Assembly: GCA_947632325.1 (NCBI GenBank)
Contig: CANROU010000002.1
Location: forward strand, 43,840 to 107,839
Source: an uncultured Bacilli bacterium
Lineage (GTDB): Bacteria; Bacillota_I; Bacilli_A; RF39; UBA660
Length of the DNA stretch: 64,000 bases
Direction: 5' to 3'
Shown: in pieces, positions 1-37,567 of the stretch
Position numbering within the stretch: the first letter of the stretch is position 1
Layout: every line of letters begins with the position of its first letter
Notes under the pieces: model-generated
What the model was told of the DNA's origin: nothing
The model's input: only the letters and a program-made list of their open reading frames with translations
Databases searched by the model: none
Position numbers and translations under genes: made by a program

Positions 1-63
1 TTATATTGGCCTACTAAATCAATGGTATATGCAGATATTATTACATTTGATATTAATTGTTAA
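1..63 (+). CDS. 3' end of an upstream gene cut by the window edge (...DIITFDINC*)
   Basis: Open frame runs from position 1 to TAA at 61-63 on the same strand as the downstream block; too short to classify. Confidence 0.2.
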   Translation, partial: LYWPTKSMVYADIITFDINC

Positions 64-120
64 TAGTTACTTCTTATTAAAAGGCGAAAAATATTATAAT
101 GAGAATGTGGGGGCTGAGTA

Positions 121-903
121 ATGGAAGTATTAATCGTTGGTATTATTATTCTGTTTGTTTTAATTTATAATAAAACAATCGATAAAGATCAATTTATTAA
201 AGATAACGATCCCTATTTTAAATTATTAAAAGAGGATGATTATGATTTTTTAGTTTATGCTAAATATGGAGAATCAGTAGATGTAGAAGTATTATTTAAA
301 AAAAGATTATCGATGGCTTTTATGGCTGGAGTTGCTTTTTTATTAATCTTTCTTAACAATTTATCTTTATTAAATATTGTTCTATCATGTGTTATCTTTT
401 ATGTTATTTTTAAATCACAATACTTTAATTTAAAAAAGTATTATAAACAACATCTTCATGAAATAGATATTATGTTGCCATATTATTTAAAGGGTTTAGA
501 AATTTTGATACAACATTATACAGTACCTGTAGCCATTGGTAAGAGTATTCCGGATGCGCCAGATATATTTAAACCAGGGTTACAAGAATTAGTTGATAAA
601 GTAGATGCTGGTGATTCTAGTATTGATCCATATATGGATTTTGCTAATACTTATCCAGTAAGAGATTCTATGCGTATGATGCGTCTATTATATCGTTTAG
701 GTATTGGTTCACAAGAGAAGAAACAAGAAAGATTATTGATGTTTTCAAGAACGGTATCTAACTTACAAAGTAAAGCTCGTGAGACAAAATATAAAGAACG
801 TTTAAATCATATGGAAAATCAAACTATGATTATGTTGGTAGTAACAGGCGTTGGCGTTATGATTATTATTTTAATAGCTATGATGGCTATGTTTGAATTT
901 TAG
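121..903 (+). CDS. Inner-membrane protein with T2SS-F-like (TadB/TadC/GspF-type) cytoplasmic domain
   Basis: GGGG RBS then ATG. TM at N-term, a TM pair at 66-98 and a C-terminal TM. Cytoplasmic segment LPYYLKGLEILIQHYTVPVAIGKS...DSMRMMRLLYRLGIGS follows the LP..L..L...AG.S / R.L..LG consensus of T2SS-F platform domains. Confidence 0.35.
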   Translation: MEVLIVGIIILFVLIYNKTIDKDQFIKDNDPYFKLLKEDDYDFLVYAKYGESVDVEVLFKKRLSMAFMAGVAFLLIFLNNLSLLNIVLSCVIFYVIFKSQYFNLKKYYKQHLHEIDIMLPYYLKGLEILIQHYTVPVAIGKSIPDAPDIFKPGLQELVDKVDAGDSSIDPYMDFANTYPVRDSMRMMRLLYRLGIGSQEKKQERLLMFSRTVSNLQSKARETKYKERLNHMENQTMIMLVVTGVGVMIIILIAMMAMFEF

Positions 904-2287
904 GATAGCTAAGCTATCTTTTTTGTTAGTAGGTGTTATAATGTTAATTCACAAAATATTTAACAAAGAAAATATTAAGTATTTAATAATATTTGCGGTT
1001 ATATTGCTTTTTGCTAGTTATTTAGGTGGCGTTTTAGATTTAGATGTTGTTTGGAATTATGGCTTTAGTTATGCCATTAGTAGAGGGGAAGTACCGTATC
1101 GGGACTTTAATATGGTAGTAACACCCCTTTATAGTTTTATTATGGCTATTCCTTTTTTACTATTTGGTCATAACTTAATTGTTTATTTAATAGCTAATTC
1201 TTTAGTATTCACGCTACTTATTTATCTATTGTTTAAATTATACCATGATAAAACCTGGTATATTGTCTTTTTGTCTTTAATTTTTATTTACTTCTTAAGT
1301 AGAGTTTTTGGATATAATTTAGGTATATTATTTTGTTATTTTTTACTTATCTATTGTGAAAAAGAAAATAAAAGTGATTATTTAATAGGATTTATTTTAG
1401 GATGTGCTTTGCTTACCAAACAATCCGTAGGCTTATGTTTATTATTACCTAATTTGTTTTATCTAAAAAAAGATATTAAAAAAATTTTAAAAAGAATAAT
1501 TGGCTTTTTAATACCTATAAGTATTCTCTTAATTTATTTAATACTTACTAATAGCTTATATCCCTTTATTGATTTATGTTTTTTAGGCATGTTTGATTTT
1601 GCTAAAGATAATGGTCAAATTATTACTCTTGGTTTTGTTATATCAGTCGTTCTATTAATATTAAATATCATTTATATTTGTAAAAATAAAAAGGATATAA
1701 CAGGTTATTATTGTTTGGCATTTTTTTCCATAATTGTTCCTTTGTTTGATTTTTTTCACGTTGCTATTTTTCTATTTGCTTTGAGTACTTTGTTAGTTAA
1801 TTATGTTCCATTAATAAATAAAAAAATATTATATATTAGTTTAATATCTGCGCTTTTATTTACATTGTTCTTTGCTTGTTTGGATGCTTTTGAATGGAAT
1901 ATTAATTATCCAAGCGGAATACACAATTTTGAATATTTTCCTATGAATAAATATTATGAAGAACAATATAAAAAAATATCTCAATTTACCCATGATAAAG
2001 AGAAGGTAGTTGTTTTAGGTAATAGTGCCTATATATACAAAATTGCTCATGAAGAGGACATTGACTATTTTGATTTATTAAATAGAGGTAATTATGGTTA
2101 TCACGGTTTAGAAAAATTAAAGAAAAAATACCAAATTTTACCAAACGATACTTATTTTATTATTGAAAAAAATCCATTAGTTTCCAAAGCTAAACGAAAC
2201 CAATTTTATAAGGAATTTGTTTATTATGTTATGGATAATAGTTCTTTTGTAAAGGAAAATACTGAATATTTAATTTATCAAAAATAA
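893..2287 (+). CDS. Polytopic membrane protein, GT-C-fold glycosyltransferase-like (ArnT/PMT_2 or O-oligosaccharyltransferase-like) with C-terminal soluble domain
   Basis: About 10-12 predicted TM helices over 330 aa followed by a ~130 aa hydrophilic tail. First loop carries an acidic/aromatic motif (GEVPYRDF). Overlaps the preceding gene by 11 nt, suggesting co-translation. Confidence 0.3.
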   Translation: MNFRIAKLSFLLVGVIMLIHKIFNKENIKYLIIFAVILLFASYLGGVLDLDVVWNYGFSYAISRGEVPYRDFNMVVTPLYSFIMAIPFLLFGHNLIVYLIANSLVFTLLIYLLFKLYHDKTWYIVFLSLIFIYFLSRVFGYNLGILFCYFLLIYCEKENKSDYLIGFILGCALLTKQSVGLCLLLPNLFYLKKDIKKILKRIIGFLIPISILLIYLILTNSLYPFIDLCFLGMFDFAKDNGQIITLGFVISVVLLILNIIYICKNKKDITGYYCLAFFSIIVPLFDFFHVAIFLFALSTLLVNYVPLINKKILYISLISALLFTLFFACLDAFEWNINYPSGIHNFEYFPMNKYYEEQYKKISQFTHDKEKVVVLGNSAYIYKIAHEEDIDYFDLLNRGNYGYHGLEKLKKKYQILPNDTYFIIEKNPLVSKAKRNQFYKEFVYYVMDNSSFVKENTEYLIYQK

Positions 2288-2338
2288 AATTTGCTGTTTA
2301 TTAATAAAACTTTATTTATGGTCAATACTAATAATATA

Positions 2339-2400
2339 TTGACAATCATTTGTCAAATTAACATAAAATTATTGTCTAATCATTATTTTTTTGTTATACT
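2339..2400 (+). promoter_or_regulatory. Candidate sigma-A promoter (TTGTCT-16-TGtTATACT) preceded by a 7-bp perfect inverted repeat TTGACAAtcatTTGTCAA
   Basis: Sits in the only sizeable intergenic gap (145 bp) of the block, ~35 nt upstream of the AGGAGG RBS of the small pilin-like gene. Confidence 0.35.
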
Positions 2401-2432
2401 AAATTTATAATAATATAGGAGGGATGTTATTT

Positions 2433-2651
2433 ATGAAAGCAGCAACAGGAGAGTTGAGTTTAACAGTAATTACAATTGTAGCGATAGGAGCGGTTATTGC
2501 CTTTTTCTGGTTGTTATGGGATAACGTGATTAAACCAAAAATCACTAATAGTTTTAATGATACGGAAACAGAGCATGAAGAAAAATGGCCAGCTATGAAG
2601 GATACTGATTCTAACTCTATTAGCGTTGGTGAATATACATTTACAATTTAA
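2433..2651 (+). CDS. Small membrane protein, possible Flp-like/minor pilin-like subunit
   Basis: AGGAGG RBS 8 nt upstream of ATG at 2433. MKAATGELSLTVITIVAIGAVIAFFWLL is a short charged N-terminus, a Gly, then one hydrophobic helix; the rest is hydrophilic. No canonical G/FTLIE or G/xxxxEY signature. Confidence 0.3.
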   Translation: MKAATGELSLTVITIVAIGAVIAFFWLLWDNVIKPKITNSFNDTETEHEEKWPAMKDTDSNSISVGEYTFTI

Positions 2652-2690
2652 TTGCTAAAGATTATTAAGAGTAAAAGTGGGTGAGTATGA

Positions 2691-3239
2691 ATGAAAGAAG
2701 CCATTGGTGGTACTTTGACGATATACCTCATTCTTATTTTCATGTTGATTCTTTCTGGTTATATGGCTTTTTCGGTAAATTATACTAAGGCCTTTCGTGT
2801 TAAAAATGAGGTTATCAATTTAATTGAACAGTATGAAGGTCATACACCTAATGCCCAGAGCAAAATTAAGGACTACTTGAGGAATATGAATTATTCGACT
2901 GCTGGTAATCCAGTAATAGCTTTTGAAAATTCAGTTAGAAAAGATAATAAATATCAGTATACTAACTGCCAAGATGGTTATTGTGTAAGGTGTTGGGATA
3001 CTAATAATAAATTGAATGCTGATAATGCTGATGGTATTGAGAATGGTATTTATTATACCGTATATACCTATGTTAATATTGATATACCTATTTTTAATAA
3101 GTTTTTCCCTGGCATGAAACTTTTTAGAGTTAGTGGGGAAACTAAAACCATATACGGTAATAAAAAATGTGAAGATTCTTCATCTTCACCGTTTGGTAAA
3201 ATTATTGATAGCTTGACGGAAAACGCCCTGCGTTATTAA
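2691..3239 (+). CDS. Membrane-anchored extracellular protein, TadE-like/pseudopilin-like N-terminus
   Basis: Single N-terminal TM (TLTIYLILIFMLILSGYMAF) followed by TKAFRVKNEV, resembling TadE N-termini. Cys-containing C-terminal domain. Confidence 0.3.
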   Translation: MKEAIGGTLTIYLILIFMLILSGYMAFSVNYTKAFRVKNEVINLIEQYEGHTPNAQSKIKDYLRNMNYSTAGNPVIAFENSVRKDNKYQYTNCQDGYCVRCWDTNNKLNADNADGIENGIYYTVYTYVNIDIPIFNKFFPGMKLFRVSGETKTIYGNKKCEDSSSSPFGKIIDSLTENALRY

Positions 3240-3271
3240 CGGTATGGTATTAATATGAAAGGGATGGTTCT

Positions 3272-4258
3272 ATGAACGTAATTGTTGCTAATCAACAACG
3301 TGAAGTATTATCTGGTTTAGATATTGATATTATTAAAAATGTTACGGGAGAATATGATGCTGATGAATTAGTCAGTATGTTCCGTAATTTCTTTTTTGGT
3401 AGAATGATTTTGGATGTTACAGCTATCAAGGAGTACCAAAATATAGCTAATTTACAAAAAATAGCTACTAATTTAGATGCAGAAAAAATCATTTTATTAT
3501 TACCTAATATACCAGAGATGTCTTCATCTAGTTATTTATCTAAAATTATATCAATGGGATACTATAATTTTACAACTAATTTAGATGGTGTTAAATATTT
3601 ATTAGATCATCCAAATAGTTATAAGGATGTAGCACATATTCAACAATTAAATGAAATGCCTGATACTCCTATGGATAGGGTATCTAGTTCCGTTGGCGAT
3701 AGTTATGTTCTTGGTATAAAAAATGTTACTGAGCAAGCTGGTAGTACAACTTTAATTTATATGTTAAAAAAAGAGTTGGAGCATACATTTTCTATGCAAG
3801 TTACAGCTATGGAAATAGGTAAGAATGACTTTGGATACTTTAATGAAAAAAATATGATTTCAGTAACTAAGGATAACTTTGCTGTTGAATTATTGAAACA
3901 TAAAGAATCTGATGTTATTTTAGTAGATTTAAATGATTCAAATATCGATGAGACTTGCCATAGTGTATTATACTTAGTAGAACCAACAACTATTAAACTT
4001 AATAAATTGTTAAGAAGAAGTAGAATGGCACTTGAAAAATTAAAAGGCAAAAAAATTGTTTTAAATAAAAGTTTATTAACTAATAGCGATGTTATGGATT
4101 TTGAATATGAGGCTCATGTAAAAGTGTTCTTCAATATGCCACCAGTTAATGAAAGAAACAGAAATAATGTTTTTCATGGCTTATTAGCTAAACTTGGCAT
4201 AATAGATAAAGGCTCAGGTGGTAAAGAAGAAAAAAGTGGTTTTTTTAAATTCTTTTAA
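3272..4258 (+). CDS. CpaE/TadZ-like protein: receiver-like N-domain plus ParA/MinD-fold domain with degenerate Walker A (alternative: VirC1-like ParA)
   Basis: VLGIKNVTEQAGSTTLIYML aligns to the deviant Walker A of MinD/ParA (V.G.KGGVGKTT) but lacks the lysines. VILVDLNDS corresponds to the Walker B-like strand. The first 110 aa resemble a CheY-like fold without the phospho-acceptor Asp. Confidence 0.4.
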   Translation: MNVIVANQQREVLSGLDIDIIKNVTGEYDADELVSMFRNFFFGRMILDVTAIKEYQNIANLQKIATNLDAEKIILLLPNIPEMSSSSYLSKIISMGYYNFTTNLDGVKYLLDHPNSYKDVAHIQQLNEMPDTPMDRVSSSVGDSYVLGIKNVTEQAGSTTLIYMLKKELEHTFSMQVTAMEIGKNDFGYFNEKNMISVTKDNFAVELLKHKESDVILVDLNDSNIDETCHSVLYLVEPTTIKLNKLLRRSRMALEKLKGKKIVLNKSLLTNSDVMDFEYEAHVKVFFNMPPVNERNRNNVFHGLLAKLGIIDKGSGGKEEKSGFFKFF

Positions 4259-4344
4259 TTTTTAATTGACAGTAAACAAATGAAAATTAATTGACTTATA
4301 TAAGAAAAACAAATAAAATAAAGTTAAGAAAGTGAGGTTTTTGT

Positions 4345-4704
4345 ATGAATTTGTTTCAGATATTAGTAGATGTTGGTGATGCCTGTGGTGGATTAACACC
4401 CGTTGTTAAATTTATTAAACATGGTGTATTTCCAATTATTCAAATAGGTATTCCTATTATTTTGATTGTTATGGGAAGTATTGATTTAGGTAAAGCTGTT
4501 TTATCAAGTGATGAAAAAGCTATTAAAGCTGCTCAAGGAATGCTTGTAAAACGTTGTATTGCCGCAGTAGCCGTATTCTTTGTGGTTACTATTGTAAGCT
4601 TATTGATGGGACTATTTAGTAATCTTAATTCTACTGACAAAGGTGAAGGAACAGATACTACATCTTGGGGTGAATGTTGGGACGCTGCATTTATTAATAA
4701 ATAA
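4345..4704 (+). CDS. VirB2/TrbC-like T4SS pilin candidate (two-helix membrane hairpin)
   Basis: 119 aa with TM - DLGKAVLSSDEKAIKAAQGMLVKRCIAA - TM topology. Shares a ~65-aa module with the C-terminus of the next gene. Followed by a strong intrinsic terminator. Confidence 0.4.
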   Translation: MNLFQILVDVGDACGGLTPVVKFIKHGVFPIIQIGIPIILIVMGSIDLGKAVLSSDEKAIKAAQGMLVKRCIAAVAVFFVVTIVSLLMGLFSNLNSTDKGEGTDTTSWGECWDAAFINK

Positions 4705-4719: not shown

Positions 4720-4742
4720 AAGCTCTTTAAGAGCTTTTTTTC
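4720..4742 (+). terminator. Rho-independent terminator after the short pilin-like gene
   Basis: AAGCTCT-tta-AGAGCTT stem followed by TTTTTT. Confidence 0.6.
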
Positions 4743-4824: not shown

Positions 4825-6318
4825 ATGAAGTTATTAAAAAAAGTAAGTTATTGTTTAGTATTGGCTTTTATCGCTTTTTGTGGATTTACTTTAAATGTAA
4901 AAGCGGATGATAAGTTTGCAATGTGTACTTATAAATATAATGATACATCTGTTGGTAATAGAACTTTAACTCTTGTATATAGAAATAAGGAATTTTATTT
5001 ATTAGCTGATACGGGAAATCCTAATCACTATTGGAGAGATACGGCGTCATCCTTTAAGCTGTTTGATAAATTAAAAATTGATATGTCTTATAAAAAAATA
5101 GATGAAATTTGTCCAAATAACATTCAAGTAAATGGATATGTTGATGATTACTCACAATTGTGTTGGGGAGAAATATGTAAAGATAGCATTAGATATGATT
5201 TATCTTTAAGTGGTAGTGATTATTTGACCTTTTTATCCAATCTTAGTTGTACATATAAACGGTCTCAAGAGGATATGCCTGATCTTACTTTGGGGTATGT
5301 TGACGGTTATGTGCAATACGAAATAATTTCATTCTTAGGTGGAAGTGATGGCGAAAGAAATACTAAACAACTTGGCATAGTTTATGCTGATGATGCTAAA
5401 AAGCTTTATGGATTTGGAGCAGAAAAAAATGGTGGAGCGTATCTAGATTATGAAGCGTTACAAGCATATAAAGAAGCTGGCTTAATAGGTGGTAATTGTC
5501 CCAACTATTTAATTTATAATCCTGACTTAGGCTTTTATGTTTCCAAGATTCCAAGCATAGACAGTAAAAAAATAGAATTATTGCGTGCTACTGCCGTTGT
5601 CAATCCTGCTACTTATTATTATTATGAAATTGGGGCTTCTGCAAAAAATTGTCCCACTGATTATAGTGATACTATTAATGAGCATATAGGGATTTTAACA
5701 AACACAGATAGCTTAATAAAAGAACGCATACAAGATGGTAAATTAGATTCACAGGCTTATGATGAATATTATGGACAAAGAACGAAGGCAAACAACGATT
5801 TAAACAGTTTTGGAAATTGTGTTGACAAGGATTTAAAAGAAACCTTAGAAAAATTAATACAGTCAGTTGGTAGCAACTTAGATCAAGCGGTAGCTGCTTC
5901 TACTATTATGACCTCAAGTGAAAAAACTGTAGCAAATAATAATAGTAATGCCATTAAAACATCTGCTAAACAGATGGCAACTTTGGATGATCCAATAGAT
6001 ATATCAGGGAATATTTCTTGTGATTCGCTATTAGGAAGTCCAAATGATTCAGGCAGTTTATACAGTTTAATTAATACTTTGTTTAGATATATTCAAATTA
6101 TTGCTCCTATTTTATTGATCGTGTTTGGTGGTGTTGATTTTGGTAAAGCTGTTTTATCATCTGATCAAGAGGAATTAAAAAAGGCTCAAGCTAGGTTTAT
6201 TAAAAGATGTATTGCTGCCTTAGCATTATTCTTTTTACCGTATATGGTTAAGTGGTTAATGGAACAAATAATGACTCATACAGGTATTATAGATTGGGAC
6301 GCTTGTATGCCTAAATAG
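4825..6318 (+). CDS. Secreted Cys-rich protein (about 430 aa ectodomain) fused to a C-terminal VirB2-like membrane-hairpin module; candidate pilus-tip adhesin
   Basis: Signal peptide (MKLLKKVSYCLVLAFIAFCGF). C-terminus IAPILLIVFGGVDFGKAVLSSDQEELKKAQARFIKRCIAALALFF...W..C is paralogous to the 4345 gene product. Confidence 0.4.
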   Translation: MKLLKKVSYCLVLAFIAFCGFTLNVKADDKFAMCTYKYNDTSVGNRTLTLVYRNKEFYLLADTGNPNHYWRDTASSFKLFDKLKIDMSYKKIDEICPNNIQVNGYVDDYSQLCWGEICKDSIRYDLSLSGSDYLTFLSNLSCTYKRSQEDMPDLTLGYVDGYVQYEIISFLGGSDGERNTKQLGIVYADDAKKLYGFGAEKNGGAYLDYEALQAYKEAGLIGGNCPNYLIYNPDLGFYVSKIPSIDSKKIELLRATAVVNPATYYYYEIGASAKNCPTDYSDTINEHIGILTNTDSLIKERIQDGKLDSQAYDEYYGQRTKANNDLNSFGNCVDKDLKETLEKLIQSVGSNLDQAVAASTIMTSSEKTVANNNSNAIKTSAKQMATLDDPIDISGNISCDSLLGSPNDSGSLYSLINTLFRYIQIIAPILLIVFGGVDFGKAVLSSDQEELKKAQARFIKRCIAALALFFLPYMVKWLMEQIMTHTGIIDWDACMPK

Positions 6319-6333: not shown

Positions 6334-8103
6334 ATGATACTAGCAGCAAAAGCGGGAATGTTTGGTAACATATGGCGTGGTATATGTATATTTTTAGATA
6401 GAATAGTATATCAACTTTTGGTTTGGGTATATGAGATTTTCTTTACGGTTGCTGAACAAAATAATTTGTTTAATCAAGATACTTATCTATATATATTTCG
6501 TCGTATATTTATGATTTTAGGCATTTTTATGTTATTCAAATTATCTATTTCATTATTACAGATTATAGTATCACCAGATGAAAATAACAAGCAACAAAGC
6601 AAAATGGGACAAGTCATTGGTAGAGTTATTGTTGTGGTGGTTTTGATTTTTGCTTTAGTTCCGCAACCATCATTAAATAATTCAGATCCAAATTCGTTGG
6701 AGGCAAAAATAAAAACCGATGGATTGCTATTTGGTACACTTAATTCACTCCAAGAACGTGTATTGAGAGGCAATTTCTTGGGTAAGTTGATTTTAGGATC
6801 TTCAGCGGCAGAGACTTCTTCAAAACAAGGTACAGCAATACAAGAGGGTGGAAATCAGATTGCTTCAACTATTTTTAGAGCATTCTTTTATCCTAATAAG
6901 TCTTGTGGACAAATTGCAATCTATGATGATTGGAGTAATAATGCAACAGACGTACAAGATCTAATGGATCTTTACCAAGAAACGTGTAGTAATAAAGAAT
7001 ATGCTTTCGAATATATGGGATTAGTTTCTACATTAGCTGGCGGTTTTGCGGTTTTTATGATTTTCTCATTCACACTAGATGTAGCTATTCGACTTTTTAA
7101 GTTATTGTTTTTAAGATTAATCGCCCCTATTCCAGTTATAAGTTATATAGACCCTAAATCAGCAAAAGATGGCGCTTTCGCTAACTGGGTTAAAGTTACT
7201 ACTAGCACTTATTTAGAATTATTTATTCATCTAATTATTATTTTTTTAATGTTATTTTTAGTACGAGAAGTAATTCAAAGTGAATTCTTTAAAAACATTT
7301 TTACTTTTGATAATAATTTTTCAATTATAACAGTAATTGCTGGGGTATTTATCATTTTAGGTATATTCTTTTTTGCTAGACAAGCTCCTAAATTTATAAG
7401 AGATATCTTTGGTATTAAAGGTGGAAGTGGTAGCATTGGACTTGCCGGTATGTTAGGAGGTGCTGCTGCCTTAGTAGGTGGTGCTGGATTAGCTGGAGCA
7501 GGAGCAGCTATGCTTCAGAATAGTATGGCTTCTAGTGATGCTGCTGCTCAAGGCAAACAGTTTAGCGGTGGTTGGCGTGCTGGTAGTGATTTGGCCGCTC
7601 AAATTAGAACAGGCGATAAAAACGCTAGAGGTGGTCTTATCAATAGAGCACAACAAGCAGCACAAAGAAGGGCTGGAGCTAGACAAGCTGATCAACTTGG
7701 GTTAACTAGAGATAATGTTCAATTCGCTAAAGATAAAATGTATGAAACTCAAAATCAAGAAACTGAAGCAACAGATGCTTATAATAGATTTATTAATAGC
7801 GACGTTTATAAAAGCAATCCTGCAGGAGAGGAAGCACATCGTCAAACTTTATATAATAATATGGTGTCTGCTCAGGCTGCAGCTGCTAAAGCTAAAAGTA
7901 ATTATGAAAAAGCCAGTAAGGGAAGAGAACAACTTGCTGGGCCAGAAACTTTACAAGATAGATATGGTCCTAGATATTTTGCTAGGCGCCGTTTAAATCG
8001 AGAAGAGCGTAGACGTAATGCTAGACGTCCAGTTGGATCTCATTATACTGAAGATGCTGATCATGCACGTGGAAGTGATAGATTTGATCAACCACCAATT
8101 TAA
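6334..8103 (+). CDS. VirB6/TrbL-like polytopic channel protein with Gly/Ala-rich and Gln/Arg/Ala-rich hydrophilic C-terminal tail
   Basis: Six or more TM helices in the first 360 aa, then GGSGSIGLAGMLGGAAALVGGAGLAGAGAA and a ~200 aa low-complexity tail. Architecture and position match ConG/TcpH/VirB6 family members. Confidence 0.45.
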   Translation: MILAAKAGMFGNIWRGICIFLDRIVYQLLVWVYEIFFTVAEQNNLFNQDTYLYIFRRIFMILGIFMLFKLSISLLQIIVSPDENNKQQSKMGQVIGRVIVVVVLIFALVPQPSLNNSDPNSLEAKIKTDGLLFGTLNSLQERVLRGNFLGKLILGSSAAETSSKQGTAIQEGGNQIASTIFRAFFYPNKSCGQIAIYDDWSNNATDVQDLMDLYQETCSNKEYAFEYMGLVSTLAGGFAVFMIFSFTLDVAIRLFKLLFLRLIAPIPVISYIDPKSAKDGAFANWVKVTTSTYLELFIHLIIIFLMLFLVREVIQSEFFKNIFTFDNNFSIITVIAGVFIILGIFFFARQAPKFIRDIFGIKGGSGSIGLAGMLGGAAALVGGAGLAGAGAAMLQNSMASSDAAAQGKQFSGGWRAGSDLAAQIRTGDKNARGGLINRAQQAAQRRAGARQADQLGLTRDNVQFAKDKMYETQNQETEATDAYNRFINSDVYKSNPAGEEAHRQTLYNNMVSAQAAAAKAKSNYEKASKGREQLAGPETLQDRYGPRYFARRRLNREERRRNARRPVGSHYTEDADHARGSDRFDQPPI

Positions 8104-8444: not shown

Positions 8445-8970
8445 ATATACTGAAGATTGGTTACCCGTTGTTGGTATTCAAAATGGTTTAATTGAATTAC
8501 AAAATCATATGAAGGTAACAGGTGTTAAGATAGTACCACGTAATATTTTTATCTTGGATGCTGATGCTCAAAATAATGTTTTAATAAGTTTAAAAAATTT
8601 CTACAATATGATAGATTTTGAGTTTTGGTTAGTGGTAGCGGATAGGCCAGTGGATATTTCGGTTTATTTATCACAACTACAATTGCTATATAATAATACA
8701 CAATCACCAGTTATTCGTAAATTGATTAATCAAGATATTCAAAAGGGTAATACATTTATGAGTAATAATATTGTAGATACAGAATATTACATCTTATTTA
8801 AAGATAAAAATATTGATGCTATACAGAAGAAAATACGTTTATTAATTAATGGTTTAGCAGGCTGTGGATTAAGTGCTTCGCAAACCAGTAATGATGATTT
8901 ACGAGTAATTTTAGATAATTTCTTAAATGGGGGACAAACAACTGAATTTGGGACGGTGTTGCCAATATGA
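8422..8970 (+). CDS. VirB4/TrbE N-terminal domain encoded as a separate gene
   Basis: EDWLPVVGIQNGLIELQNHMKVTGVKIVPRNIF...EFWLVVADRPVDIS matches the conserved N-terminal region of VirB4/CagE/TrbE. Ends TGA inside an ATGA overlap with the ATPase gene. The longer ORF-track start at 8368 is less likely than ATG 8422. Confidence 0.55.
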   Translation: MATIATSKYTEDWLPVVGIQNGLIELQNHMKVTGVKIVPRNIFILDADAQNNVLISLKNFYNMIDFEFWLVVADRPVDISVYLSQLQLLYNNTQSPVIRKLINQDIQKGNTFMSNNIVDTEYYILFKDKNIDAIQKKIRLLINGLAGCGLSASQTSNDDLRVILDNFLNGGQTTEFGTVLPI

Positions 8971-10760
8971 CAAATAATAGATTAAAAGCACAATTAGCTC
9001 CTAAGGGTTTACAATTTAATGCTAGTGATTTCTTTATTAGTGATAAATACGCTACTATTTTATCAGTTGTATCATATCCTAAATATATTGCTCCAGGATA
9101 TTTATCATCACTTACTAATATGCCAGGTATTAAGGTAGTAATTAAGCATATTCCGGTTCCTTTTCAAACCATTTCTAAGATGTTAAATAAACAAATTGCT
9201 GATTTACGTGTTAGGTATCAAGAAGAAAGAGATCAAACAATGCAGGAGAGAATTAGACAAGATGCTGATTCATTGGAACAATTTACTTCTATGTTAGCAT
9301 CATCACAAGCCCGTATTTTTGATTTTCAAATGCACATTATGATAACGGCTGATAGTAAAGAAGAGTTGGAGCTTAAGAAAACTAATGTTAAGAATTATTT
9401 AGATGCTATGGAATTAAAAGCTATTTCTCTTCGTTTTGAACAGGAAAAGGTTTTGAAATCCATTCTACCAATTTTTCCTAAGCAAGAAATCGAAGATAGG
9501 ATAGGAACCCCAATTCCATCTATAACTGTTGCGGCTATGTATCCGTTTATATTTGATAGTATCAAAGATCCAGGATTATCTACTTTATTAGGTGTTGATT
9601 TTTCTGGTGGTGTTATTTTATTTAATCAATTCTTATATAAAATAAAAAAAGAAAATAATCGTAATAATGCTAATTTAATTATTTTAGGTACTTCTGGATC
9701 AGGTAAATCAACAGCTGCTAAGTTGATGTTAAGAAGTCATATTCGTAATGGTTGTCAAATTGTAGCCATCGATCCTGAAAATGAACTAGAAGATATGACA
9801 CGCCTTTATGGTGGAGATGTTATCGATCTTGGTAAAGGTGGCGAATTTGGGATGATTAATCCCTTAGAAGTGGTAATTGATGCTGATGAAGAAGAATTGA
9901 AACAGGGTCTTGGTTATACTGTTTTAACTAGAACGTTACAATTTTTAAAGGCCTTTATGAAGTATTATGATCCATCTATTGAAGAAGATGTCCTAACTTT
10001 ATTTAGTGAGGTTGTACAAGACACTTATAAACGTTTTCAAATTGATTTTAATACAGATTTTACCAAATTAACTTCTAAAGATTATCCAACTTTTTCGGAT
10101 GTTTATGCTACTATCAATGGTTGGTTAACTTCTATGACGGAACAAACACATGAAAGAGATATTATGGAACGTTTAGAATTAAAAATTCGACCTCTTACTA
10201 AAGAATTGCGTTTCTTCTTTGATAGTCATACAACGATTACTCCTCAAAGTGATTTTATCGTTTTTAATATCAGGGAACTTATGAATGCAGAGGTTAATAT
10301 CCGTAATGCTTTGTTTTTCAATATTTTGAAATATGCTTGGGGTTTATGTTTGGATACAGATGTGGATACAGTTTTAATGGTTGATGAAGCTCATGTTTTA
10401 TTGGGACAAAATAATGTCTTGGGGGCAGATTTTTTAGCGCAAGTACAGCGTCGTGCTCGTAAATATAACACAGGAACGATTATTATTACACAACAACCAA
10501 GTGATTTCTGTGATCCATCGGTTATTACTCAAGGAAAAGCTATTTTTGATAATGCTTCTTATTACTTAGTAATGGGTTTAAGAAAACAAGCTGTAGAGGA
10601 TTTATCTTTACTTATAGATTTAAATGATAATGAAAAGGATAGCATTAAACGTTATTCACAAGGTGAGGCTCTATTTGTTTGTGGTAATCGTCGAATGCGT
10701 ATTAATGTTATTGTAACCCCAGAAGAGTTAGATTCGTTTGGTAGTGGGGGAGGATTTTAA
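8967..10760 (+). CDS. VirB4-type T4SS ATPase (C-terminal catalytic part)
   Basis: Walker A LGTSGSGKST, Walker B-like VLMVDEAHVLL, and arginine-rich AQVQRRARKYNTG motif. Size and order are typical of TcpF/ConE/PrgJ. Confidence 0.8.
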   Translation: MTNNRLKAQLAPKGLQFNASDFFISDKYATILSVVSYPKYIAPGYLSSLTNMPGIKVVIKHIPVPFQTISKMLNKQIADLRVRYQEERDQTMQERIRQDADSLEQFTSMLASSQARIFDFQMHIMITADSKEELELKKTNVKNYLDAMELKAISLRFEQEKVLKSILPIFPKQEIEDRIGTPIPSITVAAMYPFIFDSIKDPGLSTLLGVDFSGGVILFNQFLYKIKKENNRNNANLIILGTSGSGKSTAAKLMLRSHIRNGCQIVAIDPENELEDMTRLYGGDVIDLGKGGEFGMINPLEVVIDADEEELKQGLGYTVLTRTLQFLKAFMKYYDPSIEEDVLTLFSEVVQDTYKRFQIDFNTDFTKLTSKDYPTFSDVYATINGWLTSMTEQTHERDIMERLELKIRPLTKELRFFFDSHTTITPQSDFIVFNIRELMNAEVNIRNALFFNILKYAWGLCLDTDVDTVLMVDEAHVLLGQNNVLGADFLAQVQRRARKYNTGTIIITQQPSDFCDPSVITQGKAIFDNASYYLVMGLRKQAVEDLSLLIDLNDNEKDSIKRYSQGEALFVCGNRRMRINVIVTPEELDSFGSGGGF

Positions 10761-10842: not shown

Positions 10843-13119
10843 ATGGCATATAAGGCTAATAGAGGCAATAACCAAAATAATTTGCAACAATCTAATCAAG
10901 ATGATACTTCTAATAGCGAAGCTGCTAAAACAGCTAAACAGCAAGAAAATCGTGATAATACTAAAAACGTTGCTAAAAATGTAGGTTCTATGGCTTTACA
11001 AGGTATGGGAGTACCTGCTCCTATAGCAAAAATGGCTACTAATAAAATAGCTAAGAATCCTATAGTGAATAAGGCCTTAAATAAAGCTAGTGACAAAATA
11101 AATAAAAATCCACTTGCTAATAAGGCTATTAATCAAATGGCTAACAGCAAATTAGATGCTGCGGGAAAATCTTCTAACAACCCAGGTTCATCTAGTAAAG
11201 ACTCACAAAATGGTACGAAAAATGCTGAAGGTCGTAATGGACAAAGTACATCTAATAATTCTAGGTCTAATAGTAATCAGCGAAATTCATCACCAAATAG
11301 ATCTAATGATAAAAAAGATGGAGAAGGTAGTTCTAAGGTATCAGGATCGGTTGAGGGTAGTAGTCTTATACCTAAAGCTCTTAAAATAAAATTGATATTA
11401 ATTGGTGCGGCAGCCGCTGCTGGATTATTCCTAATTATTGTTGTTTTTGCTGTTATTTCTAGTTTCAATCCCTTTTTTGGTGTTGATAAATCATCTGGTA
11501 AATCAACTGATTTAGGGGAATTTGATATTGATCCTGATTCTGATGAAGGTAAGTTTTATAATAAAGTTAATGAAGTAGCTGCCGAATACAATACAAACGG
11601 GACACCATTTGATCCTAGACTTATTGCTTCTGTTTTTACGACAATTAATAATTATGATGATAATTATAGTTATGAGGAAGCTACCAATGATATTGAGACA
11701 TTAGCTAATTTTATGGTGGAAAACACTATAACTTGTCAATATGGGGAAGAAACGCAGCATGTTGTTGATAAACCTTGTCCAGAGGGCTATAATGAGGTAA
11801 GTAGAACAAGAGATATTAATGAAAAAAAATTTAAGGATAAATTAAAAACTGAATTTTTAAAAAATAAAGTTAAAACATTACCAGAGGATCAAATGGAATC
11901 ATTAGTTACGGATATATATCAATTAATTGAAGATTATAAGGAATTAATTGGGGAGAATCAAACAGTTTTAGCTGCTGGTGGTATGTGTACTTATAATGTT
12001 GATAACAAAACTATTTCTAATATCAAAGTTCGTCTTCTACAATGTGATGATGATAATCGGGGAGAACCAATTGAAGGTGAAGAATTGATTGATTTTGAAA
12101 AATATATCATGGGCGTTACTTATGCTGAAAATGGAAATGGACCACTAGAGGCTATGAAAACGGAAGCTATCGCGGCACGTAGTTTCGCTCTTACTAGAGC
12201 TAAAGATATGGGGGGAAATTTTAATATTAAATTACAAGAAGAAAATGGTGAAATGGTTTTATCTATTCGTAGTTGTACAGAAGATCAAGTATATTGTGAT
12301 CCAGATAAAGGTTGTTGGTCCAATGATAAAAATGCTAATGGTACTGTTCACTCGGGACAACAAGCAGGTAAACCTTATTCTAAGCCTCCTATACCAATGG
12401 ATTCACCTATTCGTAAGGCCATAGAAGAAACGAAAGGAACGGTTTTAGTAGATGATAGTGGGAACATTGTTATGACAAGTTATACTGATACTAATCATCA
12501 AAACTGGAACAGTTTAGCACAAGCAGGAAATGATTGTTTCCAAATATTAAAAAAGGATTATCCAAATGCCAGTAGATTACAGGCTTCTTGTTCTTTAGGA
12601 GCTGCCACTGGTGAATTTTCAAGTTGGAAACAATATGGTGCGCCATGGAGTTCTACTAAATTAGGCCCTGGGGGAGATACTATTGCGGAGTCGGGCTGTT
12701 TGGCAACTTCTATTGCTATTCAAATTGCCAGATCAGGTACTAGATTATTCATAGATCCTTTTAATCCAGGTGTTTTAGTAACGACAATGGCTGCTCATGG
12801 TGGCTTTGTTGGCAGCAGTATGCAATGGAATAATGCTTGGCAATTTGCTGCACCTGATTGGACTTTGGCTTGTGATTCTCGTAGTAGTAATAGTTGTTCT
12901 CTAAGTGGTACTAAGGCCAATAAAACTAATCAAATTGCTAGTTACTTAAATCAAGGCTATTATCCAGTGGTAGCTGTTAAAAATGAAGGGCATTGGGTAG
13001 CAATCGATCACGTTGAAGGTGATAATGTTTACATGTTTGATCCAGGTAGTAGTTCTACTTTATTATGGGATCAATATAGCTACACTGGTTCTAATAGAAT
13101 TTTGCTATTTAGAGGGTGA
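10843..13119 (+). CDS. T4SS-associated cell-wall hydrolase: Asn/Lys-rich repeat N-terminus, TM anchor, SpoIID/LytB-like domain, CHAP/NlpC-P60-like Cys-His peptidase domain
   Basis: Repeats AKNPIVNKALNKASDKINKNPLANKAINQ. TM at IKLILIGAAAAAGLFLIIVVF. LEAMKTEAIAARSFALTRA resembles the SpoIID signature (EALKAQAVAARTYAL). C-terminus has ESGCLATSIAIQIAR ... EGHWVAIDHVEG, a Cys/His dyad. Confidence 0.55.
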   Translation: MAYKANRGNNQNNLQQSNQDDTSNSEAAKTAKQQENRDNTKNVAKNVGSMALQGMGVPAPIAKMATNKIAKNPIVNKALNKASDKINKNPLANKAINQMANSKLDAAGKSSNNPGSSSKDSQNGTKNAEGRNGQSTSNNSRSNSNQRNSSPNRSNDKKDGEGSSKVSGSVEGSSLIPKALKIKLILIGAAAAAGLFLIIVVFAVISSFNPFFGVDKSSGKSTDLGEFDIDPDSDEGKFYNKVNEVAAEYNTNGTPFDPRLIASVFTTINNYDDNYSYEEATNDIETLANFMVENTITCQYGEETQHVVDKPCPEGYNEVSRTRDINEKKFKDKLKTEFLKNKVKTLPEDQMESLVTDIYQLIEDYKELIGENQTVLAAGGMCTYNVDNKTISNIKVRLLQCDDDNRGEPIEGEELIDFEKYIMGVTYAENGNGPLEAMKTEAIAARSFALTRAKDMGGNFNIKLQEENGEMVLSIRSCTEDQVYCDPDKGCWSNDKNANGTVHSGQQAGKPYSKPPIPMDSPIRKAIEETKGTVLVDDSGNIVMTSYTDTNHQNWNSLAQAGNDCFQILKKDYPNASRLQASCSLGAATGEFSSWKQYGAPWSSTKLGPGGDTIAESGCLATSIAIQIARSGTRLFIDPFNPGVLVTTMAAHGGFVGSSMQWNNAWQFAAPDWTLACDSRSSNSCSLSGTKANKTNQIASYLNQGYYPVVAVKNEGHWVAIDHVEGDNVYMFDPGSSSTLLWDQYSYTGSNRILLFRG

Positions 13120-13928
13120 AAAAAATGAAGAAATCTTATAAAATATTAATTGCTATTATTTTGATTTATGCTGTTATTATGATTATATTTGTAGGGATTC
13201 CTGCTATTAGAAAAAATAATAATGAAAAAAAAGGCACTTATCTTTTAGTAGGTAATGTTTCAAGATGGGAATATGTTAATAATACTTGGCAAAGTATTAC
13301 AGACATTAATAGTGTTCTTAGTAATAATTTATTTAAATGTTATGATGATGGTAATTATTTAGGTGAATTTGAGGTGCAGTATTATAATGATATATGGTAT
13401 TTGTTTGATAAAAACAATGATTCAAGAAAATTATCTAGTAGTTTTCTAGCCACCTCTAGTGCTAAAGAAATAGAGGTTATAGATCTTAATAATATCATGA
13501 CGAACCTTGATCAAGTAGATTTATCTTATGTCAATAAAGTATTAGAAGATAATTCTCTTCCTAGTGCTACTTTAACTACCTTAGGACTTCAAAATAAAAT
13601 AACTTTTGATTTTGATGGTGACAAACAAGAGGAGATGTTGTATACTATTTCTAATTGGTACGACGGACAGTCGCAAGATAAGATTTATTCTTTTGTCTTT
13701 TATGTTGATAATAATAATATTCAAATATTAAGAGAAGATATTGTTGATAAGATTGATATGTATGATAATCATCAATATCCTATTGTTGCTATTTTAGATA
13801 CTAATAATGATCATAAATATGAATTTATTATTAGCGAAGATAAATTAATGCAAGGTATGGAACAATGTCATATCATGTATCAATTAAAAAAAGGCCAATT
13901 TAATATAATTAAATCATGCGATGAGTAG
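13116..13928 (+). CDS. Membrane-anchored extracytoplasmic protein, possible VirB8/TcpC-like T4SS component
   Basis: Single N-terminal TM then ~235 aa ectodomain. Overlaps the upstream gene by 4 nt. Assignment is positional only. Confidence 0.25.
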   Translation: MKKMKKSYKILIAIILIYAVIMIIFVGIPAIRKNNNEKKGTYLLVGNVSRWEYVNNTWQSITDINSVLSNNLFKCYDDGNYLGEFEVQYYNDIWYLFDKNNDSRKLSSSFLATSSAKEIEVIDLNNIMTNLDQVDLSYVNKVLEDNSLPSATLTTLGLQNKITFDFDGDKQEEMLYTISNWYDGQSQDKIYSFVFYVDNNNIQILREDIVDKIDMYDNHQYPIVAILDTNNDHKYEFIISEDKLMQGMEQCHIMYQLKKGQFNIIKSCDE

Positions 13929-13941
13929 GGGAGGAATTTAA

Positions 13942-16149
13942 ATGAAATTGAAATTTCGGGCAGATCCACAAGATATATTAATCTTTGTTCTCTTTGCTAT
14001 ATTTCTTTTATATGTAGTAGCTATTGGGGTGGTTAATCTATCTACTTTAGCTGTTGAGGGACATTTTTATGGTTTAAATCCTTTAGTAGCATTTACACCT
14101 ACTTATATAAAAGCTACCATTGTATTTTATATTTTATTTCTCGCTGGTATTTTTGTTAGTGTTAGTTCTTATTTCTTTGAACGAGAAAAAGGGGTAGGAA
14201 TAACTACTGATAAAAAAGATAAAGGGTATAGTCGGTGGGCTAAAGATAAAGAAATTAAGGAAAGTAAAGATGTTGAGAAGGTTCTTATTTCAGATGAGAA
14301 TTCAACAGTCGCTGGTACTCCTTTGATTTATAAAGGGAATGAAATCTGGGTTGATAATGGTGAAAATCATACTTTAGTTATCGGTGCCACTGGTTCTGGT
14401 AAGACGCAATCAATTGTTTTACCGACAGTTAAAATCTTAGCTAAACATAAAGAATCGATGATTATTACTGATCCTAAAGGGGAAATTTATGAGCAAACAT
14501 CACAGATGTTAAGAGAAAGGGGATATCAGATTTTACTTTTGAATTTCCGTGATCCACAAGAAGGTAATGCTTGGAATCCCTTATCTTTGCCTTATGAAAT
14601 GTATAAAAATGGTCATCAGGACAAGGCTATTGAGTTATTAGATGACTTGGCTCTTAATATTTTGTATGAGGAAAACAGCGGTAATGCCGATCCCTTTTGG
14701 GAGAAAACATCAGCCGATTATTTCTCGGGTATAGCACTTGGTTTATTTGAGGATGCTAAACCAGAGGAAATTAATATTAATAGTATTAGTTTGATGACTA
14801 CAGTTGGTGAAGAAAAATTTGGAGGATCTACATATGTTAAAGAATATTTTAATAGTAAAGATCCAGCTAGTGCTGCAGCTATTAATGCTTCTAGTACTAT
14901 TATGGCTCCAAATGAAACCAAGGGTAGTATTTTGGCGGTCTTTAAACAAAAGATAAAATTATTTGCATCCCGTGAAAATTTATCCGAGATGTTATCGCAT
15001 ACAGATATAGATTTAGAGACAATTGGTGAAAAGCCAACAGCTTTATTTGTGGTTATTCAAGATGAAAAGACAACATATCATTCTTTAGTAACTATTTTAT
15101 TGAAGCAAGTTTATGAAACATTGATTGCTAATGCTCAAAAACATGGAGGAAAACTTCCTGTTCGTACGAATTTCTTATTGGATGAATTTGCCAACATGCC
15201 ACCATTAAAGAATGTTACAACGATGATTACTGCTGCTCGAAGCCGACAAATTCGTTTTACGATGATTATTCAAAATTTTGCTCAGTTAGATCAGGTTTAT
15301 GGTAAAGAAAATGCTGAAACCTTAAGAGGTAACTGTGGAAATTTAATTTATTTAATTACCACCGAATTAAAAGCTCTAGAAGAGATTAGTAAGATGTGCG
15401 GTGAAGTAAAATCGAAAAAAGATGATAAAACAGCTTCAACACCACTTGTTACGGTTAGTGATTTACAACGTATGAAAGAAAATGAAGTTATTATACTAAG
15501 ATTACGACAACAACCTTTTAAAACAAAATTTACTCCTGATTATAAGATAGACTGGGGTAAGAAATATCCTAAAGCTGAATTTCCTCATCGAGAGAAAATG
15601 CCTGTGGCAACTTTTGATATTCGTGAGTTTGTTAAAGAGATGAAACGTCAAAAATTGTTTAGTATGATGGAAGAAAACAACGGTCAAAATGGTGGTGGTG
15701 TGATGAATGCCACTGGTGGAATGCCACCTTTCAGTCCACCAAGTATGTTTAATATTAATCAAGAGCCAATGCCACCACTTAATCAAACTACAAATAATAC
15801 TAAAACATCTTCTGCTCCTGCAGATAAATTTGATGTGGATGATTTAGTAAGAAAAATCGACCAAAAGATAGCGGAATTAGAAGCCGAAGAAAAGAGAAAT
15901 AAACAACAAGCTGAGGCTTTTAATACTAAGATGCAACCTAGTGAGATTAATGCCGTAGAAGTTAAACCTAAAACAGAGGTAATATCTAACGAAAATCAGG
16001 TATTAAATGATAGAAAAACAGCTATAGAAGATACTACTTCCGTGGTTAAAGAAGAACCTAAGGCTATTATTCACACTGAAAACTTGCTATCTAATGATCC
16101 TGAAGAAGAAGATGATGATAATTTTTTTGATGACTTCTTTGATGATTAA
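13942..16149 (+). CDS. Type IV coupling protein (VirD4/TraG/TraD family) with acidic C-terminal tail
   Basis: Two N-terminal TMs. Walker A VIGATGSGKTQS, Walker B LFVVIQDE, and signature NFLLDEFANMPPL. C-terminal 250 aa has a Pro/Met/Asn-rich linker and ends EEEDDDNFFDDFFDD. Confidence 0.8.
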   Translation: MKLKFRADPQDILIFVLFAIFLLYVVAIGVVNLSTLAVEGHFYGLNPLVAFTPTYIKATIVFYILFLAGIFVSVSSYFFEREKGVGITTDKKDKGYSRWAKDKEIKESKDVEKVLISDENSTVAGTPLIYKGNEIWVDNGENHTLVIGATGSGKTQSIVLPTVKILAKHKESMIITDPKGEIYEQTSQMLRERGYQILLLNFRDPQEGNAWNPLSLPYEMYKNGHQDKAIELLDDLALNILYEENSGNADPFWEKTSADYFSGIALGLFEDAKPEEININSISLMTTVGEEKFGGSTYVKEYFNSKDPASAAAINASSTIMAPNETKGSILAVFKQKIKLFASRENLSEMLSHTDIDLETIGEKPTALFVVIQDEKTTYHSLVTILLKQVYETLIANAQKHGGKLPVRTNFLLDEFANMPPLKNVTTMITAARSRQIRFTMIIQNFAQLDQVYGKENAETLRGNCGNLIYLITTELKALEEISKMCGEVKSKKDDKTASTPLVTVSDLQRMKENEVIILRLRQQPFKTKFTPDYKIDWGKKYPKAEFPHREKMPVATFDIREFVKEMKRQKLFSMMEENNGQNGGGVMNATGGMPPFSPPSMFNINQEPMPPLNQTTNNTKTSSAPADKFDVDDLVRKIDQKIAELEAEEKRNKQQAEAFNTKMQPSEINAVEVKPKTEVISNENQVLNDRKTAIEDTTSVVKEEPKAIIHTENLLSNDPEEEDDDNFFDDFFDD

Positions 16150-37563: not shown

Positions 37564-37567
37564 TATT

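Follow-up and report, generated by a model that had tools for sequence, protein, structure and literature searches.

Why do genes that resemble those of a Tad pilus stand in a single block with genes of a conjugation-type type IV secretion system (T4SS) in the genome of an uncultured bacterium of the order RF39? The question is posed by a stretch of 64,000 nucleotides of contig CANROU010000002.1 (positions 43,840 to 107,839; assembly GCA_947632325.1), which we call the window, and in particular by its positions 1-16149. There the listing of open reading frames (ORFs) gives 14 complete ORFs (121-16149) and the cut 3' end of a fifteenth (1-120), all on the forward strand, with neighbours overlapping by 4-77 nt or standing at most 136 nt apart. 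The original prediction, made from the letters of the window alone, had rightly described these as fifteen packed, same-strand genes in a block cut by the window start, and had proposed that they combine two machineries that are normally separate, either in an undescribed hybrid or in an unusual transfer module of an integrative and conjugative element (ICE). We consider it rather probable, on the sequence comparisons set out below, that the block is a conjugation-type T4SS of monoderm bacteria, of the pLS20/pHT-beta kind and carried in the chromosome; such a T4SS would natively include a Tad-like pilus module, and this one would serve contact-dependent transfer.

The locus is longer than the block in the window. 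A 6.5-kb metagenomic contig (L001), obtained by exact-match look-up of the first window protein, overlaps the window start and carries, in order, the end of a gene for a large secreted protein, a DUF5411 gene, a CpaB-like gene, a T2SSE ATPase gene and the gene of a TadB-like protein of 297 amino acids (aa). The full locus spans from about 3.7 kb 5' of the window to about 17.7 kb within it. Its first part reads DUF5411, CpaB-like, VirB11/TadA-family ATPase, TadB-like, TadC-like (followed here by a GT-C-type gene), small pilin, DUF4320-like minor pilin and TadZ-like; its second reads VirB2-like, VirB2-fusion, VirB6, VirB3, VirB4 N-domain, VirB4, wall hydrolase, a 270-aa protein, VirD4, rhodanese and a DUF6273 protein. 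The earlier statement that no CpaF/TadA-type ATPase is visible is true of the window, and a T2SSE ATPase is encoded on L001 about 0.9-2 kb upstream. What the upstream extension brought to light is the set of DUF5411, CpaB-like, ATPase and TadB-like genes, and not a standard ICE with a relaxase and no Tad ATPase; nor did profile searches assign the first genes of the block to ordinary conjugation accessory families.

Conservation and co-divergence of the two halves

The comparison with related genomes that the original prediction had proposed found the locus widely kept. A scan of one genome per species, anchored on the TadZ-like gene, detected that gene in at least 567 species-level genomes, the named ones belonging to the order RF39, and 80 loci fetched out of these were compared. 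Homologues number 5214 for the TadZ-like protein and 7343 for the TadC-like protein, mostly at 60-75% identity, and their named sources include Candidatus Onthousia, Faecimonas, Faecenecus and 'Clostridium sp. CAG:451'. Faecimonas and Faecenecus are placed in family CAG-611 of the GTDB order RF39 and have genomes of about 1.4-1.6 Mb (PMC8035907). From DUF5411 to VirD4 the genes keep a near-invariant order on a single strand in the 80 fetched loci. The ATPase, TadB-like and TadC-like genes are present in all 68 loci with enough upstream sequence, and VirB4, and with it both halves, in 51 of the 53 with enough downstream sequence. Pairwise identities of the Tad-side proteins correlate with those of VirB4 at 0.86-0.92, against 0.89-0.96 for pairs within a module; the two halves co-diverge (r ~0.9), as tightly as the genes of one module.

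These figures bear on a first alternative, in which two independent machines lie side by side without mechanical cooperation: a Tad-type adhesion pilus, from DUF5411 to the TadZ-like gene and perhaps including the VirB2-like one, and a separate T4SS. Two related loci speak in its favour. At L075 (3268-7698) and L080 (11095-15511) the VirB2-like gene comes immediately before the DUF6273 gene, the genes from the VirB2-fusion through the rhodanese being absent at that site in what looks like a clean deletion, and unrelated genes, among them an opposite-strand tRNA-synthetase-like ORF, follow DUF6273. Because these loci keep the Tad-like, VirB2-like and DUF6273 genes without VirB6 to VirD4, VirB4 included, the halves are separable. 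The junction itself offers a further hint, since a promoter-like site (4291..4319, forward strand; TTGACT-17-TAAAAT, 10 of 12 matches) in the gap that separates the TadZ-like gene from the VirB2-like one and a terminator-like hairpin with a T-run (4720..4736, forward strand) directly 3' of the VirB2-like gene bracket that gene. The promoter-like site is a hint only, such sites showing no enrichment over shuffled sequence in the promoter scan, and the hairpin would be consistent with a separately dosed pilin transcript. Tad loci alone are also common in monoderms, TANB77 being an example (PMC11680825). All this has to be set against the joint presence of both halves in nearly all loci where both could be seen, against a co-divergence as tight as that within one module, and against the equivalent juxtaposition and order on conjugative plasmids from Bacillus, Virgibacillus and Enterococcus that are unrelated, a recurrence that is difficult to account for unless the halves are functionally coupled. 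We judge two uncoupled machines to be unlikely.

The same comparison speaks to mobility. Because the locus occurs in at least 567 species-level genomes, in near-invariant order and with co-diverging halves, and because no relaxase or integrase was found nearby, we read it from these sequence patterns as a conserved chromosomal locus of RF39 and not as an ICE transfer module, the second possibility that the original prediction had raised. Its remark that no relaxase or integrase is in view was accurate: none was found among the window ORFs of 300 aa or longer (the search did not extend to oriT or att repeats), nor over the 10 kb that follow VirD4 in the relatives L108 and L113. An active ICE or the remnant of one, with relaxase, oriT and integrase outside the sequence viewed (64 kb of the present genome and, in relatives, +/-10 kb), strikes us as very improbable. 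It can appeal to the closest characterised relatives, all of them conjugation systems, to the retention of VirD4 with intact motifs, and to a view limited to part of each genome. It sits poorly with the breadth and order of the locus already described, with a VirB4 that is 74-92% identical across genera, with the relaxase and integrase results just given, and with a G+C content of the locus that resembles that of its flanks (about 29% for the window).

Divergence within the locus is uneven. The motors are highly conserved, VirB4 being 75-92% and the ATPase 67-90% identical to their counterparts in the window locus, and the exposed parts have diverged, the VirB2-fusion ectodomain, VirB6 and the hydrolase being 25-56% identical. 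In this respect the RF39 locus encodes a surface machine that is strongly conserved and yet evolves fast where it is exposed, and the fast-evolving parts suggest a diversification that is partner-specific or driven by immunity.

Components of the two halves

Of the profile searches by which the original prediction was to be checked, those for CagE_TrbE_VirB, T4SS-DNA_transf and SpoIID gave matches, whereas CHAP gave none and the Tad-type families no direct one. The Tad-side window proteins as a group have no direct Pfam or NCBIfam family match, and we relied for that reason on structure and on transitive evidence. Part of the Tad-like half lies upstream of the window. The ATPase on L001 (375 aa, about 0.9-2 kb 5' of window position 1) matches PF00437 at 2.8e-27 and has intact Walker A and B motifs and intact His boxes; its best NCBIfam match is VirB11 (TIGR02788, 118 bits), ahead of TadA-conjugal (102 bits), both below cut-off. 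Also on L001 are the DUF5411 protein (DUF5411, 6e-51) and the CpaB-like protein (270 aa), which matches TIGR03177 at 3.6e-6 (26 bits against a 71-bit cut-off), RcpC at 0.001 and SAF at 0.004, all below cut-off, with a PDB RcpC chain match at E 2.8.

Two contiguous platform-like genes with PilC/GspF-like fold matches follow the ATPase gene, and a T2SSF-positive fused relative exists. The first encodes the polytopic TadB-like protein (297 aa), complete at L001 2896-3789; its last 39 codons are window positions 1-120, whose frame-3 translation is identical to the C-terminus of the L001 ORF, and it is 63-86% identical across 74 loci. The second (121..903) encodes the TadC-like inner-membrane protein (260 aa), which hhalign also links to plasmid gene 39. 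A comparison of the TadB-like with the TadC-like alignment by hhalign found no paralogy, both alignments being shallow (Neff ~1.8). The TadZ-like protein (3272..4258) has, in an AlphaFold2 (AF2) model, a receiver-like N-domain and a ParA/MinD fold, and its Walker A is without the lysine of GK[ST]; TadZ proteins are recognised by just such a pairing of a receiver-like domain with a ParA/MinD-type one whose Walker A is atypical. Profile searches with the TadZ-like, TadC-like, TadB-like and CpaB-like alignments, and with that of the 270-aa protein of the T4SS half, found nothing significant among PDB sequences.

The pilin-related calls are weaker. The small pilin-like protein (2424..2651, 75 aa) has a short leader and one hydrophobic helix; its N-terminus, MK(E/A)ATGELN(M/L)TV(I/V)T followed by a transmembrane (TM) helix, is kept in 21 orthologues. 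The minor-pilin or TadE-like candidate (2691..3239, 182 aa), with no direct Pfam match, has a conserved TadE-like N-terminus (MRDAIGG, TM helix, AFxVNYTKAFRVKN) and appears related to plasmid DUF4320 proteins (hhalign 60%, E 8.5e-5, 31 columns). Between the TadC-like and pilin genes lies a GT-C-type glycosyltransferase candidate (893..2287; PMT_2 E 5e-4, 20.7 bits, under the 26.1-bit cut-off), found in only 2 of the 80 related loci, those of two distant relatives, in the same slot and at ~30% identity. A pilin-modifying role for this protein is plausible, and its insertion together with the Ser/Thr/acidic C-terminal tail of the 75-aa pilin, longer here than in the orthologues, suggests lineage-specific pilin glycosylation. 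On fold-level and contextual evidence a Tad-like reading of this half is reasonable. The Tad-like calls of the original prediction largely hold, then, the upstream ATPase, TadB-like and CpaB-like genes and the TadC-like and TadZ-like folds bearing them out, with the GT-C, pilin and TadE-like calls still weak.

It is also conceivable that there is no Tad pilus here at all: the ATPase would be a true VirB11, T4SS-specific membrane partners would energise a VirB2-like filament or channel, and the likeness to Tad would reflect the ancestry of the ATPase superfamily. TIGR02788 as the best NCBIfam match fits this, as does the published naming of the pLS20 homologue as a 'putative VirB11' (PMC8557374). 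So do the position of the VirB2-like gene, which always follows the block and stays when the T4SS core is missing, and a window in which neither a Flp motif nor a prepilin peptidase is seen. The proposal has to contend with a series of hallmarks that belong to Tad and not to VirB systems, namely the two contiguous PilC/GspF-like platform genes, the T2SSF-positive fused relative, the CpaB-like protein and the two-domain TadZ-like protein, and we hold it to be quite unlikely.

The T4SS half is more readily identified. It begins with a VirB2-like (T4SS_pilin-type) two-helix hairpin protein (4345..4704, 119 aa), present in 77 of 80 loci with a conserved motif QIxIPIxLIxxGxxDxGKAV, and continues with a secreted VirB2-fusion protein (4825..6318, 497 aa) that has a variable ectodomain and a C-terminal VirB2-like hairpin (PF18895 2.8e-5, residues 410-478). 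The 119-aa protein is 43% identical to this C-terminus, and we regard the two, with moderate confidence, as paralogous PF18895-type hairpins. A homologue search with the 497-aa protein gave 11 weak matches only, the query itself not among them; these few homologues and the low identity to relatives (25-56%) indicate fast evolution, and weak NCBIfam matches point to Mycoplasma ICE transmembrane proteins. The VirB6-like polytopic channel protein (6334..8103, 589 aa), with a low-complexity C-terminal tail, matches NF045848 MMCAP2_0566 (1.2e-8) and pLS20_p028 (0.003), and hhalign relates it to plasmid VirB6 (77%, E 2e-5).

Three successive ORFs that overlap one another then appear to divide among them what is one protein elsewhere, giving a VirB3, a VirB4 N-domain and a VirB4 motor as three genes. 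The first is a VirB3-like small membrane protein (8124..8444, 106 aa), whose identity rests on an hhalign match to plasmid DUF5592 (84%, E 7e-6). The second is a separate VirB4 N-terminal domain (8368..8970, 200 aa by a TTG start; NF045975 positions 113-277, E 2.2e-13), 65-85% identical across 54 loci. The third is the VirB4 ATPase (8967..10760, 597 aa; NF045975 positions 293-890, 8e-107), with Walker A GTSGSGKST and Walker B MVDEAH intact, further matches to TraG P-loop (1.6e-13), AAA_10, CagE_TrbE_VirB and the CD1110 family (9.6e-50), and 75-92% identity across 54 loci. Along the fused 894-aa Mycoplasma ICE VirB4 profile the three align in series to 2-95, 113-277 and 293-890, the first at E 0.45, which is not significant alone. 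Because the three ORF lengths are kept in at least 49 RF39 loci and the plasmids have similar-sized ORFs in matching positions, the split VirB3/VirB4 (8124-10760) is not a pseudogene; hhalign gave no link between the 200-aa ORF and the plasmids' ~205-aa ORF in the matching position.

The remaining T4SS genes comprise a cell-wall hydrolase, a membrane-anchored protein and the coupling protein. The hydrolase (10843..13119, 758 aa) has a disordered N-terminus, a TM helix, a SpoIID domain (4.4e-8, 34 bits, above the 23-bit cut-off) and a C-terminal Cys/His domain. A CHAP domain was considered for it and rejected, the full-length protein matching SpoIID alone and the C-terminal 173 aa giving Peptidase_C39 at 0.02 and nothing else. 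The membrane-anchored protein (13116..13928, 270 aa) occupies the slot expected for a VirB8/TcpC-like protein and has no Pfam, NCBIfam or PDB profile match; relatives keep it, at 22-34% identity, in the same place between hydrolase and VirD4. The VirD4-type coupling protein (13942..16149, 735 aa) matches PF02534 (T4SS-DNA_transf) at 6e-60 and NF045973 (CD1115 family) with 311 bits, where the cut-off is 250 bits, and its Walker A and B are intact. Its C-terminus (window 16000-16149) is a strongly acidic/aromatic tail ending ...DPEEEDDDNFFDDFFDD, which we take to resemble the C-terminal tail of F-plasmid TraD that binds the relaxosome partner TraM. The VirB4, VirD4 and SpoIID hydrolase calls are strong, and the VirB6-like, VirB3-like, two VirB2-like and TadZ-like calls moderate; of the T4SS components named in the original prediction, only the VirB8-like protein was not confirmed.

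The conserved VirD4 is also what stands most directly in the way of a DNA-import machine, competence-like in the manner of Helicobacter pylori ComB or archaeal Ced, that would feed a nucleotide-poor reduced genome. To our knowledge the known DNA-import systems have no VirD4 coupling protein, and no ComEC-like or DNA-binding competence genes adjoin the locus. We regard import as improbable in the extreme, despite a chromosomal, conserved locus with no relaxase found nearby, weak CedB and CedD matches on VirB4, a lineage reported to be highly auxotrophic (PMC12306168), and Tad pili that take up DNA in some bacteria (cited in PMC11680825).

Returning to a T4SS with a native Tad-like module, several results weigh against it. 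No window protein gives a direct Pfam match to T2SSF, TadE, Flp or CpaE. The 75-aa protein has no Flp or N_methyl Pfam match and is without the Flp G/XXXXEY motif (no EY), and neither a prepilin peptidase motif (GxGD[VIALM]K, any frame of the 64-kb window) nor such a domain in scanned ORFs was found. The best hhalign match of the TadB-like protein, to pLS20 gene 38, is weak (E 0.005, 126 columns), and by hhalign the three compared plasmids are without a TadZ-like or CpaB-like counterpart. To these we add the separable halves of L075 and L080 and a relaxase that might lie outside the sequence viewed.

If the reading is right, a plasmid-type T4SS with its Tad-like module would have become fixed in the RF39 chromosome, its relaxase lost or never nearby. 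The ATPase, acting on the TadB/TadC platform and organised by the TadZ-like protein, would assemble the small pilins into a thin filament or pseudopilus, and this filament would cross the wall and touch a partner cell, much as the IncI type IV thin pilus does in liquid mating. The hydrolase would open the peptidoglycan, VirB3, VirB4, VirB6 and the VirB2-like proteins would form the channel, and VirD4 would feed it a substrate, whether DNA or protein.

Genomic setting

The conserved unit extends somewhat past VirD4. A VirD4-anchored scan returned 387 metagenomic relatives with equivalent upstream T4SS genes, the best 80 of the 387 at 60-78% identity. Downstream of VirD4 the window encodes, on the forward strand, a single-domain rhodanese (16198..16500, 100 aa; PF00581 6e-17) and a DUF6273 membrane-anchored surface protein (16590..17693; DUF6273 E 0.001, below cut-off). 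In most VirD4-anchored loci the rhodanese again follows VirD4 (35-48% identity), and in most loci the DUF6273 protein is encoded 3' of VirD4 (34-48%); both look like members of the conserved unit, which on this ground reaches ~17.7 kb. Beyond that point synteny between the window and the VirD4-anchored relatives is lost. DUF6273 paralogues are also found upstream of the cluster in relatives. There, 5' of DUF5411 (L048 26-4783, L014 339-5047), lie genes for a surface protein of the DUF6273/Ig-like type, for a sortase-like protein (4e-14 to a class B sortase model, below cut-off) and for a Cys-rich secreted protein of 840-927 aa with no family match; the end of a large secreted protein likewise opens L001. 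In their position, the surface genes heading the RF39 locus would echo the adhesin that heads the plasmid operons.

The rest of the window is housekeeping in character, with genes for PBP2, RodA, CdsA, RseP, GerA/B/C, a T-box-controlled class I tRNA synthetase, NusA, IF-2 and SMC. The T-box leader (45941-46141; 128 bits against a gathering score of 93) lies upstream of the class I aminoacyl-tRNA synthetase gene (46115-48622), and the sole tRNA in the window is tRNA-Arg(TCT) (34269-34345). A GerA/GerB/GerC-type germination receptor operon (36493-40066, reverse strand; GerA 1e-157) and a Germane-domain protein (33262-34203) suggest that this small-genome bacterium forms spores. Two small Cys-rich ORFs with the common motif KPFLG.CP...CFNTRP and another ORF with collagen-like GPxG repeats (28505-29378 and 41421-42161, reverse strand) may encode proteins of the spore-coat or exosporium type.

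Apart from the Tad-like module, three adjacent type IV pilin-like genes (21976-23635) carry an N-terminal methylation motif (PF07963, 4e-9 to 8e-8), from which we would expect the genome to encode elsewhere a prepilin peptidase together with a further type IV filament or a Com system. The ORFs at 20997-21916 were considered as pilins and rejected, one of them encoding a Prp protease.

Comparison with known systems

The nearest counterparts are Gram-positive conjugative plasmids. A tblastn search of PLSDB with the ATPase gave 30-33% identity to 'CpaF/VirB11 family' proteins on a pLS20-family Bacillus plasmid, a Virgibacillus plasmid (NZ_CP017963) and Enterococcus faecium pZB18. Taken together, the three operons read adhesin, small membrane proteins, ATPase, two hypothetical membrane proteins (~265 and ~240 aa), DUF4320 and DUF5415, and then TrbC/VirB2, a large protein, VirD4 (CD1115 family, as in RF39), VirB6 (pLS20_p028 family), DUF5592, a ~205-aa protein and VirB4. 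The run from a DUF5411-like gene through the ATPase, two membrane proteins, DUF4320 and VirB2-like to VirB4 is collinear between RF39 and the pLS20-family (genes 36-54), Virgibacillus and pZB18 operons. When the RF39 alignments were compared locally, profile to profile, with the plasmid positional orthologues (hhalign), the ATPase matched the plasmid VirB11/CpaF-family ATPase at 100%, the TadC-like protein matched plasmid gene 39 at 91% (E 1e-6, 166 columns), and DUF5411 matched the plasmid protein upstream of the ATPase at 22%, a protein that itself matches Pfam DUF5411 at 2.5e-5; the VirB2-like, TadZ-like and CpaB-like profiles gave no link to the positional proteins of the three plasmids. 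Unlike the RF39 locus, the plasmids are mobile, carry a MOBP relaxase and place VirD4 before VirB6; RF39 and plasmid proteins share only ~30% identity, and in RF39 the locus lies in the chromosome, where no relaxase was seen nearby. The description of the two machineries as normally separate, and of their union as an undescribed hybrid, is thus inaccurate for this branch of Firmicutes T4SSs, the same layout being present on these Gram-positive plasmids and a similar one having been described in Sulfobacillus (PMC6803676).

The comparison also reflects back on the plasmids. In pLS20, gene 37 has been called a 'putative VirB11' in a class of T4SSs thought to be without one, and genes 36 and 38-41 have been left as unknown (PMC8557374). 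Our alignments suggest that the pLS20-type genes 36-40 beside this 'VirB11' may be a Tad-like platform and pseudopilin set, in a plasmid that is genetically tractable. As a corollary of the distinctly tentative proposal on RF39 made below, the pLS20-type 'VirB11' would work on a TadB/TadC-type platform and build a so far unseen Gram-positive conjugative pilus. The field generally holds that Gram-positive conjugation systems build no filament; whether they make one after all, and by what means, is an old question to which the comparison is relevant.

Other systems share single aspects of the arrangement. Sulfobacillus plasmids pL15 and pY0017 combine a T4SS with MinD-like, CpaF/TadA-like and TadB/TadC-like genes (PMC6803676). 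A MinD/TadZ-type protein, as in RF39, is common to pL15 and pY0017 of S. thermotolerans and the plasmid-like region of Kr1, whereas these systems are plasmid-borne with a relaxase, and their likeness to RF39 is drawn from the published description, not from sequence. Mycoplasma ICEs supply the best NCBIfam matches for the RF39 VirB4 (Mbov_0397, 8e-107) and VirB6 (the Mbov_0396/MMCAP2_0566 transmembrane proteins, 1.2e-8), with one fused 894-aa protein in place of the three RF39 ORFs. We know of no Tad-like module in Mycoplasma ICEs. Tad pili, whose hallmarks have been described (PMC6668835), and among them the divergent monoderm cluster of TANB77, have a set of components to which RF39 offers putative counterparts: CpaB, a TadZ/CpaE-type protein, a TadA-type ATPase, TadB and TadC and several small pilin-like proteins. 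In the gut clade TANB77 the Tad components are recognisable mainly by structure (PMC11680825). RF39 differs from Tad pili in having no Flp motif and no prepilin peptidase in the window, a TadZ placed after and not before the ATPase, and a module embedded in a T4SS locus. For the functional model we have adopted the type IVb thin pilus (pil) of IncI plasmid R64, a type IV filament module within a conjugative system that serves liquid mating-pair formation (cited in bioRxiv 10.1101/2025.01.22.634366); it is Gram-negative, of the type IVb pilus class and not homologous in gene order, and offers an analogy only.

A close conceptual parallel may be found in the Patescibacteria (candidate phyla radiation, CPR), whose reduced genomes carry a widely conserved, chromosomal MPF_FATA-like T4SS with PF18895-type VirB2-like pilins, mostly without a relaxase, which is proposed to have been co-opted, alongside type IV pili, for a host-dependent or epibiotic life (bioRxiv 10.1101/2025.01.22.634366). 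They belong to another phylum, that paper mentions no VirB11 or Tad genes, and in RF39 the pilus module lies physically within the locus. By analogy, we put forward as a distinctly tentative proposal that RF39 domesticated a plasmid-type T4SS with its Tad-like pilus and turned it into a core organelle by which its cells interact, obligately, with others. This would be the equivalent, among Firmicutes, of the epibiotic lifestyle that depends on T4SS and type IV pili in Patescibacteria, and RF39 cells may then attach to other bacteria and exchange or extract DNA, proteins or nutrients. RF39, an order common in the guts of humans and animals, has no cultured member, and what is known of it concerns chiefly its reduced genomes and its auxotrophy (PMC12306168); a conserved surface machine would provide a testable lead to its interactions with neighbours and possibly to its resistance to culture. 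In a literature search of incomplete coverage we found no description of the RF39 locus, nor of the TadB/TadC-like nature of pLS20 genes 38/39. Set beside these systems, the combination of Tad and T4SS genes is, judged by sequence, not new in kind; what is new in RF39 is its order-wide fixation in the chromosome, the apparent loss of the relaxase and the addition of CpaB-like and TadZ-like genes.

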